Source: Candidatus Woesearchaeota archaeon (GTDB lineage: Archaea > Nanobdellota > Nanobdellia > Woesearchaeales > GW2011-AR9). Taken from it: a stretch of 59,217 nt of DNA. The notes under the pieces were generated by a model, which was given only the letters and a program-made list of their open reading frames with translations, made no database searches and had not been told where the DNA came from. Below are positions 1,480 to 45,671 of the stretch, one piece after another (within the stretch, counting starts at the first letter, position 1; each line of letters opens with the position of its first letter). The position numbers and the translations under genes were made by a program. The stretch is from assembly GCA_043797205.1 (NCBI GenBank), contig JAZDQB010000014.1, forward strand, positions 1 through 59,217, given 5' to 3'.

Positions 1480-1599
1480 GCCCCAGTGGCTCAGTCTGGT
1501 TAGAGCGAATGGCTGTTATCCTCACTGGCGTTCGGGAACTTCCCGAACCTAGTTCGGTAAGTAACCATTAGACCGTCAGTTCAAATCTGACCTGGGGCG
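1480..1599 (+). tRNA. tRNA-Asn (anticodon GTT) with a 45-nt intron at the canonical 37/38 position
   Basis: Hand-folded cloverleaf. Acceptor is GCCCCAG/CTGGGGC, D-arm GCTC..GAGC, anticodon stem AATGG/CCATT with loop CTGTTA|A, and T-arm GTCAG-TTCAAAT-CTGAC with discriminator G. The intron is 1519-1563 and contains the hairpin GTTCGGG/CCCGAAC. Confidence 0.85.
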
Positions 1600-18532: not shown

Positions 18533-20257
18533 ATGGACTTTCAAAAGCTGGCTGAACTGTATGAAGAGTTGGAAAAGACTGCTTCCGGCAATGCTATGCG
18601 CGAAATCCTGGCCAAATTCTTCAAATCTGTTCCTGCGGAGGATATTGCGGTAATTTCTTATCTTACTTTAGGTCAAATCGCTTCCGATTACGAAAATGTA
18701 GTTCTCGGAATGGCGGAAAAGTCCGTGCTGAAAGCTATCGCCGTAGCCGGTGCTGCAGACAATTTTAAAGTGCAGAAATTCATGCAGGAAACGGGAGATG
18801 TAGGCTTGACCGCAGAAAAAATCTTGCAGAAGAAACCAATTACTTTAGTTCCGTTAGGAAAACTCACCGTAAAAGAATTGTTTGCTACTTTACATAAGAT
18901 TGGAGAATCAGGCGGTTCTGGTTCCCAAGACCAAAAACAAAACCTCTTAGCTTCTTTGTTGCAAAAATCTTCTCCCCTGGGGGCAAAATATATTGCTCGA
19001 ATCGCCCTCGGCACTTTAAGAATGGGGGTAGGAGATATGACGGTGCTGGATGCTTTATCCATCACTTTTACCGGAGATAAAGATGCTAAAGAAAAATTGG
19101 AGAAAGCGTACAATATCTGTCCAGACTTAGGATTGATTGCTGAAACCTTAGCTAAAGGAGGAATAAAAGCGATTGAAAAGATTGATGTGCATGTAGGCCG
19201 ACCGATAAAGATGATGTTAGCTCAGCGCGTAGAAGATTTAGAACAACTTCCAGACAAAATCACTCCACCTTGGACGATAGAAGCCAAGTATGACGGAGAA
19301 AGAGTACAGGCGCATAAGAACAAAAAAGGAAAAATTGTTTTATTTTCCCGCCGTTTGGAAAACATCACCAATCAATTTCCCGATTTAGTGAAATATTTAG
19401 AGAAGTATATCGCTGCAGAAGAGTGGGTGTTAGAAGGAGAGGTATTAGCCATCGATAAGAAAGGTCACCCTTTGCCGTTTCAAACTTTAATGCAGAGAAA
19501 GCGTAAGATGGATATTGAAGAGTACGTAAAATCTGTTCCAGTACATCTGAAAGTGTTTGACTTGCTTTACTTAGACGGAAAATCTTTCCTGCATCAGCCG
19601 TACTATAAGCGTTCGGAGCAGCTGGCTAAGCTCATCAAGAAGAACGAATTTATTGTTCCTACAGAAAAGATTATCACTTCCGATATCGAAGAATTGAATG
19701 ATTTTTTCCGCGAGATGCTCGATGCCGGTTATGAAGGGGTGATCGTCAAATCTCGGGCGGAAGATTCAGAATATCAAGCCGGAACGCGAGGATGGAATTG
19801 GATCAAATGGAAAAAAGAGTATGCGGCAGAAATGGCCGATACTTTTGATTTGGTGGTAGTGGGAGCATATCACGGCAAAGGAAAACGTTCTGGCACTTAT
19901 GGAGCATTACTTTGTGCGGCTTATAATCAGAAAGAGGATACCTTTGAGACTTTGTGCAAGATGGGCAGTGGATTGACGGATGAGTTGTTAGAACAATTTC
20001 CTAAATTGTTGGAGAAGTATAAGCTGACGCATAAGGCTGCAAGATTAAAAGTAAAAAGAGAGATGGAAGCAGATTTGTGGTTCGAACCGAAGATAGTGAT
20101 AGAAGTAAAAGGCGCAGAAATCACTAAAAGTACCTTTCACACTTGCGCTTCAGGATTGGCTTTAAGATTTCCACGCTTTCTGCAGTTCCGAGAGAATAAG
20201 AAGCCGGAACAGGCTACAACTTCTAAAGAGATTGAGCAGATGTTTCGGGGGAAGTAG
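18533..20257 (+). CDS. lig: ATP-dependent DNA ligase (archaeal/eukaryotic Lig1 type)
   Basis: Adenylation motif EAKYDGERVQ, plus EGEVLA, EGVIVK and a C-terminal OB region, in a 574 aa protein with an N-terminal DNA-binding domain. Confidence 0.9.
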   Translation: MDFQKLAELYEELEKTASGNAMREILAKFFKSVPAEDIAVISYLTLGQIASDYENVVLGMAEKSVLKAIAVAGAADNFKVQKFMQETGDVGLTAEKILQKKPITLVPLGKLTVKELFATLHKIGESGGSGSQDQKQNLLASLLQKSSPLGAKYIARIALGTLRMGVGDMTVLDALSITFTGDKDAKEKLEKAYNICPDLGLIAETLAKGGIKAIEKIDVHVGRPIKMMLAQRVEDLEQLPDKITPPWTIEAKYDGERVQAHKNKKGKIVLFSRRLENITNQFPDLVKYLEKYIAAEEWVLEGEVLAIDKKGHPLPFQTLMQRKRKMDIEEYVKSVPVHLKVFDLLYLDGKSFLHQPYYKRSEQLAKLIKKNEFIVPTEKIITSDIEELNDFFREMLDAGYEGVIVKSRAEDSEYQAGTRGWNWIKWKKEYAAEMADTFDLVVVGAYHGKGKRSGTYGALLCAAYNQKEDTFETLCKMGSGLTDELLEQFPKLLEKYKLTHKAARLKVKREMEADLWFEPKIVIEVKGAEITKSTFHTCASGLALRFPRFLQFRENKKPEQATTSKEIEQMFRGK

Positions 20258-20312
20258 GGAGTTTAATTTCTTTAAGGATAAATTTTTAAGCTTTGGAATT
20301 ATTAGTTTGGAT

Positions 20313-21083
20313 ATGGTGTTTAAGAAAGGAAACGTTCCCGTGAATAAAGGAAAACATCCCTCTGAAGAAACTAGAAGAAAACAATCCTTATCTCACTTAG
20401 GGATAAAATATCCTAACCGGAAATATACTTATTCCAAATCTGCATTTCAAAAAGGGCATAAAATAAACCTCGGAAGACATTTTCCCGAAGAATTTGGAAA
20501 AAAGATAGTGGAAACTAGGAGAAAAAACAATTCTTATAAAGTTTCTGAAGAAACTAAAATAAAACAAAGTTTAGCAAAAACGGGAAAACGTTCTTCTGAA
20601 GAAACTAAGAGAAAATTAAGTGCCATTTGGAGTAAGCCAGAATATCAGAAACTGGCAAAAGAAAGAAGAGCAAAACAAGTATTCCCCTTAAAAGATTCTT
20701 TGCCCGAAATCAAGATCCAACATTTCTTAAAACAATTAGGTATAATTTTTTTGGCGCATAAACTTATCACTAAAATTGAACATAGTTATCAGTGCGATAT
20801 TTTCATCCCTTCAATGAATCTTATAATAGAGGTGGATGGAGATTATTGGCACGGGAACATAAGCAATTCTCGATTTAAAACGTTGAATAAACCTCAAATA
20901 GCTACAAAAGAATTAGATTTTATCCGAACAAAAGAGCTTATTGAAAAAGGATTTAATGTATTAAGATTATGGGAAAGCGAAATTAAAAAAATGAATCTTC
21001 AAGAGTTTATGTTGAAAGTAAAACCATTTGGGAAATTAGTGAATAATTCCTCAAAAGAAGATTTAAATAAATGGCTGGTTTAA
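20313..21083 (+). CDS. free-standing homing-endonuclease-like protein with three NUMOD3-type DNA-binding repeats and a C-terminal Vsr/DUF559-like nuclease
   Basis: Repeats are GKHPSEETRRKQSLSHLG, VSEETKIKQSLAKTG and SSEETKRKLSAIW. The C-terminus reads CDIFIPSMNLIIEVDGDYWHGN..VLRLWESE. The start was moved to MVFKKGN at 20313. Confidence 0.6.
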   Translation: MVFKKGNVPVNKGKHPSEETRRKQSLSHLGIKYPNRKYTYSKSAFQKGHKINLGRHFPEEFGKKIVETRRKNNSYKVSEETKIKQSLAKTGKRSSEETKRKLSAIWSKPEYQKLAKERRAKQVFPLKDSLPEIKIQHFLKQLGIIFLAHKLITKIEHSYQCDIFIPSMNLIIEVDGDYWHGNISNSRFKTLNKPQIATKELDFIRTKELIEKGFNVLRLWESEIKKMNLQEFMLKVKPFGKLVNNSSKEDLNKWLV

Positions 21084-23906: not shown

Positions 23907-24037
23907 GTATTTGTTTAGCATCTTCGAAATCCTTGATGTGAACCGGCAAGTGCTGCGTTCCCGTATGGAGCATCCCCTCGCAACGCACTAGTTTCTGTAA
24001 TCACATGGATTTCGACCTGAGGATGCTAAACAAATAC
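23907..24037 (-). repeat. R-element copy 1, a ~130-nt structured intergenic element oriented on the minus strand
   Basis: The outer helix is 16 bp (23907-22/24022-37) and the inner helix 9 bp (23924-32/24007-15). A 6-nt one-sided bulge reads CTCAGG on the minus strand. The GC-rich core contains GGGGATGCTCCATACGGGAACGC (minus). Confidence 0.7.
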
Positions 24038-29083: not shown

Positions 29084-30058
29084 ATGAAAAATATCGACCT
29101 CATCGACCGGAAGATTTTATCCGAATTGGACTTTAATAGCCGGCAGCCGTTTTCGCTCCTTGCTAAGAAAGTACGCTGTTCTCGTACCGTGGCCGAGTAC
29201 CGCGTAAGACGGATGCGAGAAGAAGGTATTATCAGTTCTCTGGCTGCTTTCGTGGATCCGGCCAAATTCGGCTATACCAGCTGGAAAGTTTACGTGCAAT
29301 TTCAGGAGCATAACCTACCATTTTTGCACCAGATAGAAGAGTATCTTAAGAATCATCCCAAATTCTGGTGGGTAATCAAGTGCGAAGGAAGTTTTGACTT
29401 AATGTTTTGTGTTCTAGCTAAAAGCGTGCATGATTTTTATCAGGAATTGGACGCTTTCCAGATGAAGTTCAGCAAATATGAATCTAGAATCGAGATCACT
29501 TCTCATATTAATCCCGATTTCTTTTCTCGCGGTTATCTCTTGAATAAAGAATCAAAGAAAGTATGCGCTACTTTTCTGAAAGAGCCTTCGGTAGATAAGG
29601 TGGATGAAATAGATTTGAAAATATTAAAGATGCTGCTGCAGGATGCTCGCCTTCCCTCTACTGAAATGGCTTTAAAGCTTAAAACTACTCCGCGCATCAT
29701 CAATTATCGTATCAAAGAACTACTGAAAAGAAAGATCATTACTCATTTCCGTCTGATTCCTAACGTGAATAAATTAGGGATGGATTATTACAAAGTTATG
29801 CTGGGCTTGAAAGATTTGAACTCTCAGCAGCAGGCTAAACTGCGTCAATATTTAGAGGTGCATCCAAATATTATTAACTATTCCAATTCTTGGGGACCAT
29901 GGGAGATGGAGTTTGAAGCGGAGATAGAAGGATTTAAGGAATTGACTAATTTGATTAATAAGATTCGGGAAGAATTCTCTGAGATTATTAAGAAAGTAGA
30001 ATTTGTCTTGATTACTGAAGAGTTTAAGGCCAATAATGATTTTTTGGATGTTAAATAA
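29084..30058 (+). CDS. tandem-duplicated Lrp/AsnC-family transcriptional regulator
   Basis: Two HTH-plus-effector units are present: IDRKILSELDFNSRQPFSLLAKKVRCSRTVAEYRVRRMREEGII and IDLKILKMLLQDARLPSTEMALKLKTTPRIINYRIKELLKRKII. Confidence 0.75.
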   Translation: MKNIDLIDRKILSELDFNSRQPFSLLAKKVRCSRTVAEYRVRRMREEGIISSLAAFVDPAKFGYTSWKVYVQFQEHNLPFLHQIEEYLKNHPKFWWVIKCEGSFDLMFCVLAKSVHDFYQELDAFQMKFSKYESRIEITSHINPDFFSRGYLLNKESKKVCATFLKEPSVDKVDEIDLKILKMLLQDARLPSTEMALKLKTTPRIINYRIKELLKRKIITHFRLIPNVNKLGMDYYKVMLGLKDLNSQQQAKLRQYLEVHPNIINYSNSWGPWEMEFEAEIEGFKELTNLINKIREEFSEIIKKVEFVLITEEFKANNDFLDVK

Positions 30059-30365
30059 TAATGCCTTCTTTAACCGCTTCTCTAACTATACCCATCTCTT
30101 TCTTCTTTTTGTTAAATTCTTCTGGAGTATAACATAAAATATCCATCGCTGCCGGAATGTTCCTTTTTAGAAAATAAGCTTTTGCGTATCTATCTAAGAA
30201 CTTCTGTTTCTTGAACTTTTCACTTACTAAAATAAAGTCATAATCGCTATCTTTCTTAGCTGTACCTTTAGCCCTAGAACCAAATAAATATACCTGACAA
30301 TCCGGATACTCTTCTTTTGCAATCTTGGCAAAAGAATTCACTATTTTAGCTGTTTTTTGGTCCAT
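30051..30365 (-). CDS. minimal nucleotidyltransferase (MNT antitoxin-type)
   Basis: YLFGSRAKGTAKKDSDYDFILV carries the GS..D-x-D signature. Confidence 0.75.
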   Translation of the reverse strand: MDQKTAKIVNSFAKIAKEEYPDCQVYLFGSRAKGTAKKDSDYDFILVSEKFKKQKFLDRYAKAYFLKRNIPAAMDILCYTPEEFNKKKKEMGIVREAVKEGIII

Positions 30366-30721
30366 TTTAATATTATTTTAGTTTTATCTAAGTATTCTTG
30401 CGCTAGAACTGAATTGTAAAATTTTGAAGGAATTTCTGGTGCAGCTCCGGGGTAACGAGAGAAAATGTATGCTGAAGTAATTCTACTAGCGATTAAAATA
30501 ATCTCTTCTGGCGTCTTAGTCTGACGACATAGTTCGGTTAAATCATGTATCTTCGGTGCTAACTTGTTATTCTGATAAATATAAACTGCTTTTAACGCTT
30601 TTTCAGCAGCTTGCTGGCATAAAAAGGCAGTAACATAAAAAGTCTTACTTTTAAAATTTAAAGTAGCAGAACGATAGTCTTCTTCCGCTTGTTCTATCCA
30701 CATCTCTGCATCTTTATTCAT
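30341..30721 (-). CDS. HEPN domain protein (toxin-type partner of the MNT)
   Basis: The sequence pattern AEEDYRSA..FYVTAFLCQQAAEKALKA..KIHDLTELC..SRYPG fits HEPN. It overlaps the downstream NTase gene. Confidence 0.7.
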   Translation of the reverse strand: MNKDAEMWIEQAEEDYRSATLNFKSKTFYVTAFLCQQAAEKALKAVYIYQNNKLAPKIHDLTELCRQTKTPEEIILIASRITSAYIFSRYPGAAPEIPSKFYNSVLAQEYLDKTKIILKWTKKQLK

Positions 30722-31457: not shown

Positions 31458-31468
31458 GGTAGTTAGAG

Positions 31469-31591
31469 TTTATTTAGCATCATCAGTTCGAAATACTTTC
31501 GATAGCATCTTCGGGAGTGGTAAGGGGTTGTCCCTTACGGGGATGCCACTTTTACAATGCCTCTGCGAGTATTTCGAAGATGCTAAACAAA
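31469..31591 (+). repeat. R-element copy 2 (plus orientation)
   Basis: The outer helix is TTTAGCATC (31473-81)/GATGCTAAA (31579-87), the 5-nt bulge is ATCAG, and the inner 11-bp helix is TTCGAAATACT/AGTATTTCGAA. The core is GGGGTTGTCCCTTACGGGGATGCC. Confidence 0.7.
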
Positions 31592-31714
31592 TAGTTTGCT
31601 TCTATTTAAACCTTTCTAAATAACTCTCTAAATTTGGAGAGTTAGTGTTTAAATACAAACTTAATACTACTAACTCATAACAAAAATAGAATTAAAACAA
31701 AAAGGTGAAGTAAA

Positions 31715-32403: not shown

Positions 32404-32964
32404 TTAATTCATTAACATCAGTTTCCGGCGAGTGTATTTTATTTTCCATTGCTCCAGCACTTCCTGCATCTCTTTATCTTTCTCCAAGGGGATAAGAAAA
32501 GCACTATTTGAAACAAATTCACCGCTAAACTTCTTTACCAGCCCTTCTGAACCATTCCTTCCCCTTAATAAGTAAACAAAACGGACTTTCTTGCTGGGCG
32601 CCTCTGGGGATAAATCATAAGCATAAAGTAATTTTGGCATCAGCCCATAAGCTTCAGACAGCTTTTTTCCAGTAAGGATGCTTGCACCTTCGAAGAAGAT
32701 GGTTTTTGAGAGGGAATGGACTTCCTGAAAAAAGTTTTCAGCATTTAGAAAATTAATATGGTATTTTTCTCCTAACAACGATTCAACTTCTCTAACTAAT
32801 TTTAAGTTTGGCTTGTCTTTAAATATCAGGCAGATATCAATATCATGTGGGGCAAGTTTTCCTTTTACTGCCGATCCAAATATCAAAATATCTATTAGTT
32901 CCTCTTTCCATCTATTTTTCCAATTATTCTTTAACTGAGAAAATTTTTTTGAGTCTTTCCACAC
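32404..32964 (-). CDS. nucleotidyltransferase domain protein (186 aa)
   Basis: ILIFGSAVKGKLAPHDIDICLIF carries the GS..D-x-D signature. Confidence 0.7.
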   Translation of the reverse strand: MWKDSKKFSQLKNNWKNRWKEELIDILIFGSAVKGKLAPHDIDICLIFKDKPNLKLVREVESLLGEKYHINFLNAENFFQEVHSLSKTIFFEGASILTGKKLSEAYGLMPKLLYAYDLSPEAPSKKVRFVYLLRGRNGSEGLVKKFSGEFVSNSAFLIPLEKDKEMQEVLEQWKIKYTRRKLMLMN

Positions 32965-33268
32965 TTTCTTTTAACCTCTGAACCTGTTCTTTATGGATAC
33001 GCAGGTTGTAACTGTCGGTATATTCTCTAAACAAAGGAGAAATCAGGCTGTAAGCTTCTTTATAATGAACTTCTAAAAACAAGAACCTTTCCTTGTGGTT
33101 CTTTGGAAGCAATCCTTGTAATTTATATATTTGATAATCACAAAGAATAGCAATGGCCTTGAAGTAAGATGAAATGGCTGGATTATACCGTTGTTCCTGA
33201 TAATCCCTTTCTGCACTAGCCAAAAATTCTTTGAAATTGTTCAGCAAGTCTTCGGTTATCGCCGTCAT
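32924..33268 (-). CDS. HEPN-like helical protein partnered with the downstream NTase
   Basis: The AERDYQEQRYNPAISSYFKAIAILCDY pattern fits HEPN. It overlaps the NTase gene by 41 nt. Confidence 0.5.
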   Translation of the reverse strand: MTAITEDLLNNFKEFLASAERDYQEQRYNPAISSYFKAIAILCDYQIYKLQGLLPKNHKERFLFLEVHYKEAYSLISPLFREYTDSYNLRIHKEQVQRLKESVERLKKIFSVKE

Positions 33269-43339: not shown

Positions 43340-43468
43340 TCCGGCGAATCAAACAATATATATCCTCCGTAAAGGATAGACTAGAGAATGAAAACCTTTA
43401 TATAGAAGCACTAGTCTTAACAAACTACAAAATTAAGATAACAATCAAAGAATAAAGAGGGAGAGAAA

Positions 43469-43947: not shown

Positions 43948-44586
43948 ATGGGGTTAACTCCACAAAAAGCAGAGTTGATAGGTGCACACGCTGGTGATGG
44001 TACTTTGTATCAAACTTGGAAAAACACTTTTGTTTGGGAATTAAGGGGCGCACTTGAAGAGAAGGAATATTACTTAAATAATATCTGTCCATTACTAAAG
44101 GACATATTTCGGCTTGAGATAATCTCAAAATTTCGAAGTGGTGGTGCTCACGGAGTTTGGGGCGTTCAAACCACCAAAAAAGAGATAATTCATTTTTTCT
44201 TAGAGTGGGGATTTAATCCGGGGAGTAAGACTTATTCCGTTACTGTGCCAGAATACATTTTCAGTTCTAGCGCTTTGATTAAAAGAGCTTTTGTTCGTGG
44301 TTTGTTTGATACGGATGGTTGTTTAAGATTTGATCGAATTAATAAAACCGTAAATCGAGAATATCCTCGGATTGAATTTGGTTTTGCTTCCATTGCATTA
44401 AGAGATTCTCTTAAAAAATTGTTAGGAGAGTTAGGTTTTAACTCTTTTATTTGGAATGATAAGAGTAATTATCGTCTTTGCGTTCCTGGAAAAAATAATT
44501 TGGAAAAGTGGATTAATGAGATTGAACCAAAGAACCCGAAACATTTAAAAAAGTACTATATTTGGAAGGAAAAGGGTTGTTATTAA
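43948..44586 (+). CDS. LAGLIDADG-family homing endonuclease (double-motif, free-standing)
   Basis: Two motifs are present, LIGAHAGDGTL and VRGLFDTDGCL. The stop codon ends 1 nt before the tRNA 5' end. Confidence 0.75.
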   Translation: MGLTPQKAELIGAHAGDGTLYQTWKNTFVWELRGALEEKEYYLNNICPLLKDIFRLEIISKFRSGGAHGVWGVQTTKKEIIHFFLEWGFNPGSKTYSVTVPEYIFSSSALIKRAFVRGLFDTDGCLRFDRINKTVNREYPRIEFGFASIALRDSLKKLLGELGFNSFIWNDKSNYRLCVPGKNNLEKWINEIEPKNPKHLKKYYIWKEKGCY

Positions 44587-44872: not shown

Positions 44873-45271
44873 ATGAAGTTTAATCTATCTGCATTAAAAA
44901 AATTGTCTCAGAAACACAATCTTAAGCTGTTGGTGGCTTTTGGTTCTCAGATTAGTGGTAAGATTCATAAAGAAAGTGATTTAGATTTGGCTTTCTTTCC
45001 GAATGGAAATGTTGATGAAGAAAAGTTGTACCAAGATTTAGTTCACTTGTTTAAGAAGGCCGATATTGATTTAATAAACTTGGCCACCACCCACAATCAG
45101 ATTCTCCGTTTTAAAATCCTTAATTCTGGAAAAATTCTTTACGAAGAGGAGACAGGGATTAAAAGTACAATGGAATGGCAGAGTTATTTTGATTATTGCG
45201 ACTTTAAGAAGTATTTTGATTTGCGCAGTTCTATTCTTGACAAGAAAATTGGTGAGATGATTCATGGATAA
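44873..45271 (+). CDS. mntA: MNT-type nucleotidyltransferase antitoxin
   Basis: LLVAFGSQISGKIHKESDLDLAFF. Confidence 0.75.
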   Translation: MKFNLSALKKLSQKHNLKLLVAFGSQISGKIHKESDLDLAFFPNGNVDEEKLYQDLVHLFKKADIDLINLATTHNQILRFKILNSGKILYEEETGIKSTMEWQSYFDYCDFKKYFDLRSSILDKKIGEMIHG

Positions 45272-45671
45272 GATAATTATCGAGAGCAAGATTAGTTCTT
45301 TGCTCACTTTGTTGGAAAAGCTGAAAGGTATTCTTAAAGAGTACGAAACAAATAAAACCTTAAAGGAGATTATTTTTTATGCTGCAGAAAAGAAAGCAGA
45401 AGAAATTGTGGAACTAGCTATTTCCATTAATCAGGAATTGCTGAGGGAAAAAGGAAAAACAAGTTTAAGCTATTATGACAGTTTCATAGATTTAAAGGTG
45501 TTTAAGTCTTTTTCCGAATCGGAGCTGAAGGAATTAGCCAGTACCGCCGGATTTAGGAACAGGTTGGCTCACGAATATTTGGAAGTTAATGAAGAGATTG
45601 CCGTAAGATCGATGAAGAATCTTCTAAGGATCTATCCTCCTTACCTGCAGAAGGTAAAAAAGCTTCTTTAA
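45264..45671 (+). CDS. hepT: HepT (DUF86) HEPN-domain toxin
   Basis: The R-x4-H motif is FRNRLAHEY. It overlaps the MNT gene by 8 nt. Confidence 0.75.
   Translation: MDKIIIESKISSLLTLLEKLKGILKEYETNKTLKEIIFYAAEKKAEEIVELAISINQELLREKGKTSLSYYDSFIDLKVFKSFSESELKELASTAGFRNRLAHEYLEVNEEIAVRSMKNLLRIYPPYLQKVKKLL

Follow-up and report, generated by a model that had tools for sequence, protein, structure and literature searches.

Three palindromic intergenic elements of a Woesearchaeota contig are probably copies of a new MITE family of DPANN archaea

Three intergenic elements that share one layout raise the question of what kind of sequence they are, and the initial annotation had offered three answers: an RNA gene family, a MITE, or a recombination or processing site. 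The window, by which we mean the whole analysed stretch of 59,217 nt, is archaeal and belongs to the Woesearchaeota/Nanoarchaeota (DPANN). The first hint of this came from a tRNA gene (window 1480-1599, plus strand) with an archaeal-type intron of 46 nt at the anticodon loop; it scored 57 bits with the Rfam tRNA model and was not reported by ARAGORN. The best homologues of the ArgRS and SepF encoded in the window were labelled Woesearchaeota or Nanoarchaeota, and the TrmB, SepF and DUF7343 families were represented among its genes.

Reading of all three regions confirmed that one copy lies on the minus strand and two on the plus strand, at the positions first proposed. The copies, with their covariance-model scores, and the parts of copy 1 are the following.

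23907-24037, minus strand: copy 1, a complete element of 131 nt with perfect 16-bp TIRs (GTATTTGTTTAGCATC / GATGCTAAACAAATAC); 124 bits
24022-24037, minus strand: left TIR of copy 1, the 5' strand of outer helix P1
24016-24021, minus strand: conserved 6-nt bulge of copy 1, CTCAGG (family consensus NTNAGG), facing a single unpaired A at 23923
24007-24015, minus strand: 5' strand of inner helix P2 of copy 1 (TCGAAATCC), partner of 23924-23932 (GGATTTCGA)
23950-23988, minus strand: GC-rich core of copy 1
23907-23922, minus strand: right TIR of copy 1, the 3' strand of P1
about 31466-31594, plus strand: copy 2, diverged, with ends GAGTTTATTTAGCATC ... GATGCTAAACAAATAG; 103 bits
43216-43339, plus strand: copy 3, diverged, with ends GTTCATTTAGCTTC ... 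GAAGCTAAATAAAC; 109 bits

Copy 1 reads GTATTTGTTTAGCATC-CTCAGG-TCGAAATCC ... GGATTTCGA-A-GATGCTAAACAAATAC, and its core is built from a GTGC/GCAC helix, a GCG/CGC helix and an apical box composed of a G-run, a C-run, ATAC and a second G-run. It is located 7 nt past a stop codon. The layout recurs in copies 2 and 3, which differ by a few substitutions. Copy 2 carries the bulge ATCAGT and a single P1 mismatch, and is found 10 nt from the start codon of a divergent TrmB-family gene, in a variable HEPN/MNT island. In P1 of copy 3 an A-U pair has become U-A, a compensated change. This copy begins immediately after the stop codon of a 480-aa gene and has sepF downstream. A scan of the window with the covariance model gave no copy beyond these three (103-124 bits).

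The conserved ends that had been described for the three copies were recovered: the 21-nt 5' motif TTTAGCWTCNTCAGKTCGAAA had three exact matches in the window, where shuffled sequence led us to expect 0.04, and the 16-nt 3' motif had three exact matches as well. Folding of each copy reproduced the proposed arrangement of an outer helix (14-16 bp), a bulge of 5-6 nt on the 5' side only and an inner helix (9-11 bp), with z-scores of -3.4 to -5.4 (-5.1 to -7.8 for the reverse strands). The core GGGG..CCC..TACGGG, with its TACGGG box, was common to the three copies. With a GC content of 43-49% the elements were indeed richer than the window (about 37%), although the original wording, 'much more GC-rich', mildly overstated the difference.

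To describe the family beyond the window, one genome per GTDB species was scanned with the query TTAGCNTCNTCAGNTCGAAA, which returned 67 loci. Forty-nine of these were located in DPANN-type archaeal MAGs, often many per MAG, and nearly all had a matching 3' end 113-213 nt downstream. The 18 bacterial matches were rejected as family members; the 3' end was missing, and in 596 Gb a query with 17 specified bases could give that many by chance. With a covariance model trained on 30 copies we detected about 59-60 copies in 45 sources (44 genome loci and the window), diverged subfamilies included, and at least 17 further copies on metagenome contigs. About 75 copies were thereby known overall in related MAGs and metagenomes. 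Fifty-five of the 75 were 128-135 nt long (median of all copies 131 nt); the others measured 162-229 nt, a tail due to extra hairpins in the apical region. The interior varied among copies and contained no conserved ORF, and at 128-229 nt the element is short and non-coding. The sampled loci of one MAG held ~25 copies, and three occur in 59 kb here. Many of the metagenome matches stopped at contig borders, which is the usual sign of a repeat breaking assembly. The further copies and the compensatory substitutions that the initial annotation had expected were both found.

The element was also present in MAGs labelled 'uncultured Methanosarcinales archaeon' (L007, L008, L020, L025, L030, L033, L044, L051 and L066). 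The genes flanking the element in L066 were about 90% identical to those of JAGVMW01, an element-bearing MAG labelled only as an unclassified 'archaeon'. The taxonomic labels of these bins may be unreliable. Viral carriage was considered and rejected: the 16-mer TIR matched 53 IMG/VR contigs, but none of these yielded an element with the model, which marks the matches as chance.

The ends and the flanks of the copies bear the marks of mobility. Intact copies, including copy 1 and those of most relatives, end in GTATTTGTTTAGCATC...GATGCTAAACAAATAC, a perfect TIR of 16 bp. A second subfamily has the ends GTATGTGCATAGCACC...GGTGCTATGCACATAC, and its copies were flanked by perfect direct repeats of 8 bp (TACACAAC, TAGGAAAC, ATTTTGAG and ATTAAGAC). 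Duplications were counted in 29 copies anchored on their GT...AC termini; the flanking 8-mers were identical in 18 copies, matched at 7/8 positions in seven and at 6/8 in three, against a mean of 2.4/8 for the offset control. Nested or extended copies were duplicated too (TTTCCCCC, AAAAGAAT, AAACAAAA). As the duplicated 8-mers were AT-rich and without consensus, they represent true target duplications with a fixed length of 8 bp.

Two orthologous sites were found filled in one genome and empty in another, which amounts to insertion polymorphism. The first is that of window copy 3, between the 480-aa gene and sepF: L125 had no insertion there, L124 and L126 had DNA unrelated to the element, and the adjacent sepF promoter region was almost invariant. 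The second, filled in L066 (3143-3272), was empty in front of the orthologous gene of L042. The syntenic contig of the closest relative (~36 kb; ArgRS 84% and SepF 89% identical) carried no copy, and none was detected by the covariance model on four other related contigs. The copies are intergenic, and their orientation to the neighbouring genes was random (14 sense, 12 antisense, 9 convergent, 9 divergent). The independence from flanking genes that had been claimed for the three window copies held for them and for 59 copies overall.

The unrelated DNA at the copy 3 spot consisted of hairpin-like inserts of about 70 nt (L124:9807-9880) and 150 nt (L126:7246-7400), and the spot after the 480-aa stop codon may be an insertion hotspot or a home of other repeat families. 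A 334-nt gap upstream of ArgRS in a relative, L123 (8071-8404), was GC-rich and had many inverted repeats. The covariance model gave no match to it, and it may be another structured element.

The window copies themselves had no duplications. The flanks of copy 1, GGCAGATA and AACAAACC, were identical at 3/8 positions and contained no recognisable target-site duplication; copy 2 had none either, and 3/8 was the value for all three copies. The TIRs of copy 1 are nevertheless flawless and equal to the active consensus. The interiors of the three were 49-61% identical to each other, each being closer to copies in other genomes. Given this mutual divergence, the missing duplications and the absence of the copies from the nearest relatives, the three are best read as separate, older insertions. 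An inversion between copies 1 and 2 as the cause of the missing duplications was rejected by inspection, as the flanks contradict its prediction.

MITEs are shorter than 500 bp, have TIRs of 4-30 bp and direct repeats that fade with age, lie between genes, and give rise to transcripts that form stem-loops (PMC10969869). A bulk census has counted 105 MITEs per Mb in a Woesearchaea genome and did not describe their families (PMC11602168). On the basis of the TIRs, the 8-bp duplications, the filled and empty sites, the dispersal and the random orientation, we assign the family to the MITEs, and we put the probability that the three elements are copies of such a non-coding MITE family of DPANN archaea at roughly 78%. 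Of the readings offered at the outset, only this one proved correct. The family is new: our search of the literature found no published description of it, and turned up nothing on the class beyond the census and one review. The class itself is well known and ordinary. What sets this family apart is its fold, which is preserved unusually well.

The following mechanism would be consistent with these observations. A non-coding element of ~131 nt, bounded by 16-bp TIRs (GTATTTGTTTAGCATC), would be mobilized by a transposase supplied in trans, which would cut AT-rich intergenic DNA with an 8-bp stagger and so leave 8-bp direct repeats at young copies. The chemistry would be of the DDE type, either cut-and-paste or copy-in. 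Over its whole length the element is an imperfect palindrome, and either strand can fold, in the order outer helix (the paired TIRs), invariant asymmetric loop 5'-C[NTNAGG]TC / GA[A]G-3', inner helix and GC-rich forked core, with small hairpin modules nested in the apical loop of the core. Compensatory changes preserve the pairing between lineages, each of which has multiplied recently, and this suggests that the element probably needs the fold to propagate itself, most likely in single-stranded DNA or in a synapsed pair of ends. Template switching, a palindrome-specific mutational process, may contribute too, and a host-encoded RNA job is less likely.

An autonomous partner was sought at three levels. 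The 58 ORFs of the window gave no transposase match in Pfam, and neither TIR pairs at kilobase spacing nor multi-copy ORFs were present in the 49 genome loci, which cover the DNA within a few kb of the copies. A metagenome scan with the right-end 23-mer returned 27 loci, all of which were MITEs, nested variants, contig-end fragments or, in one case, a mini-palindrome, with no partner among them.

Covariation was strong throughout and extended into the interior helices, to five helices in all. Paired cells made up 95% of the total and 26 of 35 pairs had double changes, a level reached by none of 500 shuffles and compared with about 41% in slid controls. The subfamilies swap their helix sequence almost entirely (TTTAGCATC is replaced by CATAGCACC or GGTTAGCAGC), and in the inner helix TCGAAA/TTTCGA gives way to TCAAAA/TTTTGA or TCAAAG/CTTTGA. 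Across subfamilies the internal loop was kept: NTNAGG on the 5' strand faces a lone A on the 3' strand, between the invariant closing pairs C-G and T-A. The interior consisted of two short covarying helices and the apical box of G-run, C-run, NTNC and G-run, in which the loop read CTAC in 27 copies, TTAC in 21, GTCC in seven and other variants in the rest. We had considered this box as a UNCG tetraloop, but a C[NUNC]G loop is the better register, and the argument for RNA that it would have provided was dropped.

Compensatory changes of this kind are predicted equally by a DNA palindrome or by co-evolving TIRs. Wobble events showed no strand-specific signal or polarity (17 distinct G·U versus 11 A·C), and the two strands of the window copies folded about equally well, the reverse strand being equal or better. 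In the flanks of the copies no TATA-like box, T-run, or conserved promoter or terminator was seen at a fixed distance. The lack of G·U polarity, the equal stability of the strands and the missing promoter and terminator favour reading the element as a DNA-level palindrome under constraint and not as an oriented RNA gene.

Several features speak against a plain MITE. One is that the search of the window ORFs and of the genome and metagenome loci gave no autonomous partner. The missing duplications beside the flawless TIRs of copy 1 are not explained by simple neutral ageing. Covariation in the interior helices, which are not transposase-binding ends, needs another cause, and the composition is atypical, the element being richer in GC than its genome, unlike typical MITEs. 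Moreover, in a number of copies (L030, L033, L044 and L051 of MAG CAZFPU01, L061:4946, L040:6458 and window copy 3) the stem ended in 3-8 bp that were unique to the copy and yet complementary, without duplications, while the interiors were 85-90% alike; fixed TIRs do not explain such copy-specific complementary ends. We give some weight, though a small one, to a mobile hairpin in which the fold serves as the substrate, or to old copies that were co-opted by the host as RNA hairpins. If the fold were the substrate, the loop C[NTNAGG]TC / GA[A]G might be recognised by a putative DPANN transposase or integrase on single-stranded DNA or on an RNA copy. Fold-back synthesis could then regenerate the terminal stem and give stem ends that are unique and perfectly complementary, and such a process would account for 45-nt hairpin modules homing into one apical loop.

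The hairpins might act in cis in the mRNAs of neighbouring genes, in either orientation, as 3'-end stabilisers, processing sites or transcription barriers. Many copies do lie 0-30 nt past a stop codon, among them window copies 1 (7 nt) and 3 (the next base), and long helices form on both strands. The window copies have also kept near-perfect helices and ends despite their lost duplications and interiors of only 49-61% identity, and the orthologous elements L066:906 and L057:2093 were about 97% identical between flanks of 89-92%. Bacterial MITEs, for example ERIC and Correia, alter mRNA stability (PMC10969869). The sites, however, are not kept in the nearest relatives, and the copies adjoin gene starts about as often as gene ends. 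Archaeal transcription termination is also not known to require hairpins. A cis-acting role is compatible with a MITE origin, the host having retained old copies such as the three of the window, but on balance we consider it unlikely.

Independent small structured RNA genes, trans-acting or protein-binding and copied around the genome, fare worse. Their functional sites would be the conserved asymmetric loop together with the apical NUNC box. The strong covariation in five helices is in keeping with this, as are the loop and closing pairs that do not vary although subfamilies differ completely in helix sequence, the confinement of variable-length insertions to one apical loop, and the terminal stems that differ among copies and are still paired. 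A search of the whole window with Rfam 15 at the gathering threshold nevertheless returned only a tRNA, and copy 1 at E<=10 only an 11.5-bit chance match to SNORD44; the comparison with Rfam called for by the initial annotation thus gave no family that matches the elements. Neither a conserved promoter nor an oligo-T at a fixed distance was found, and neither wobble pairs nor folding energy showed a strand bias. Orientation was random, the copies are absent from orthologous sites in relatives, and the target-site duplications together with presence/absence polymorphism show spread at the level of DNA. The independent RNA gene family that had been suggested is quite improbable. The judgement that the elements are no simple terminators was right.

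Structure-specific recombination sites in single-stranded DNA, like integron attC sites or IS200/IS605 ends, are less probable still, and we regard them as very unlikely here. In those systems the recombinase recognises a hairpin with extrahelical bases, and the present elements resemble them in a structure conserved more than its sequence and in a conserved one-sided bulge. Some of the inserted modules also have C-GAA-G and C-GTA-G triloops, and triloops of the GAA/GTA type form very stable DNA mini-hairpins. Tyrosine and HUH recombinases, however, are not known to produce fixed 8-bp duplications such as those seen here. The copies are dispersed singly, kilobases apart, in both orientations and beside housekeeping genes rather than in cassette arrays, and the Pfam scan of the window ORFs found no integrase, TnpA or TnpB gene nearby.

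For the reverse strand, a hammerhead-like ribozyme and a K-turn or box C/D RNA are effectively refuted. That strand does carry CUGA[U/G/A]GA (CUGANGA with a variable middle base) beside CGAAAC, and a GAAA sequence nearby, but the motifs lie in a two-helix junction that lacks the third stem, with additional bases between them and the helices. The outer helix is Watson-Crick along its whole length, so that tandem G·A pairs do not occur, and no GA faces the bulge. The hammerhead and C/D models of Rfam gave nothing but the SNORD44 match. An archaeal bulge-helix-bulge, which has two opposite 3-nt bulges 4 bp apart, was also rejected, as the loop here places 6 nt opposite 1 nt; folds of module-bearing copies showed no such motif at the module borders either.

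With the MITE reading preferred, the family can be compared with known systems. Its closest functional analogue is the enterobacterial ERIC/IRU element, a 127-bp imperfect palindrome classed among the MITEs. The likeness lies in the size of ~130 nt, the imperfect palindrome that spans the whole element, the intergenic location in either orientation, a copy number that varies greatly between related genomes, and longer forms that arise by insertion at fixed internal positions. For ERIC/IRU no cognate transposase is known, and for the DPANN family none was found in the loci examined. The fixed-position insertions of ERIC/IRU were reportedly described by Hulton et al. in 1991 and by Wilson and Sharp in 2006. 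The DPANN family differs in its host domain, shares no sequence similarity with ERIC/IRU, and is distinguished by clear 8-bp duplications, perfect 16-bp TIRs, a GC-rich core and an invariant asymmetric loop.

The Correia elements of Neisseria (CREE) and the RUP and BOX elements of pneumococcus are likewise short, TIR-bounded, non-coding and present in many copies, and their transcripts fold into long hairpins that can be processed (PMC10969869). Correia elements, however, duplicate TA and not 8 bp, and their parent IS families are different or known. Inner helices maintained by covariation and nested modules, both present in the DPANN family, are not reported for them. The archaeal MITEs of Sulfolobus (SM1-SM4), Haloquadratum and Halobacterium are non-autonomous TIR elements that lie between genes in tens of copies per genome (PMC10969869). 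These are tied to identified host IS, whereas the partner of the DPANN family was not found in the loci examined. Integron attC sites and the PATEs derived from IS200/IS605 share with the family a hairpin structure and extrahelical bases that are conserved beyond the helix sequence. They make no target-site duplication, in contrast to the 8 bp found here; attC sites form ordered cassette arrays beside an integrase, which the DPANN family does not, and PATEs have subterminal hairpins where that of the family is terminal.

DPANN genomes are very small and streamlined, and the element still reaches tens of copies per genome. Its recognition accounts for many GC-rich intergenic islands that look 'structured' and might be taken for RNA genes, as well as for contig breaks in MAG assemblies, and it offers a marker for strain-level variation and horizontal exchange among the Woesearchaeales. 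The compensatory evolution, the invariant loop and the nested modules also make it testable whether the secondary structure of a MITE is selected for transposition itself.

The modules were observed in several variant copies. A hairpin module of 45 nt (GTTTGCGTAGCGAACTCACGAGTGGAGCAGAGCGGAACGACTCGA) occupied one apical-loop position of L057:2093-2264 and was absent from the orthologous L066:906-1032. The identical module was present in the otherwise diverged L061:4946-5120, and a variant of it in L017:4206-4377, which belongs to a different subfamily. It behaves like a smaller mobile unit nested in the MITE. The modules of L013 were tandem hairpins of about 33 nt. Further insertions occurred at the position TTTCGAAG^, and extra DNA within the right end, after TTTCGAAG or TTTCGAAGATG, was seen in L018:3834-4227, L065:6737-6987, L017:960-1128 and L041:6701-6939; the same insert of ~85 nt was common to L018 and L065. 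A mini-palindrome of 58 nt (L152:161-218) consisted of two joined ends that form a near-perfect hairpin without bulge or core.

Other features of the window were noted alongside. Three toxin-antitoxin-like gene pairs of nucleotidyltransferase and HEPN (or HepT) type were located at 30051-30721, 32404-33268 and 44873-45671. Two HEPN/MNT pairs lie together with copy 2 within a stretch of ~5 kb (about 27.3-33.3 kb) that is absent from the closest relative. A free-standing LAGLIDADG-domain ORF (43948-44586, plus strand) directly follows sepF, and a NUMOD3/Vsr-like endonuclease ORF (20232-21083, plus strand) is situated directly 3' of the gene for an ATP-dependent DNA ligase (18533-20257); both may be selfish genes of the homing-endonuclease type. 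The ~110 nt upstream of sepF (window 43342-43468, plus strand) were near-invariant in four genomes, next to sequence that was saturated with changes. In this stretch an inverted repeat, GACTAG...CTAGTC, flanks the box TTTATATA, and a hairpin ATCCT-CCGTAA-AGGAT is also present. The stretch resembles a 5' leader or a regulated promoter/operator.
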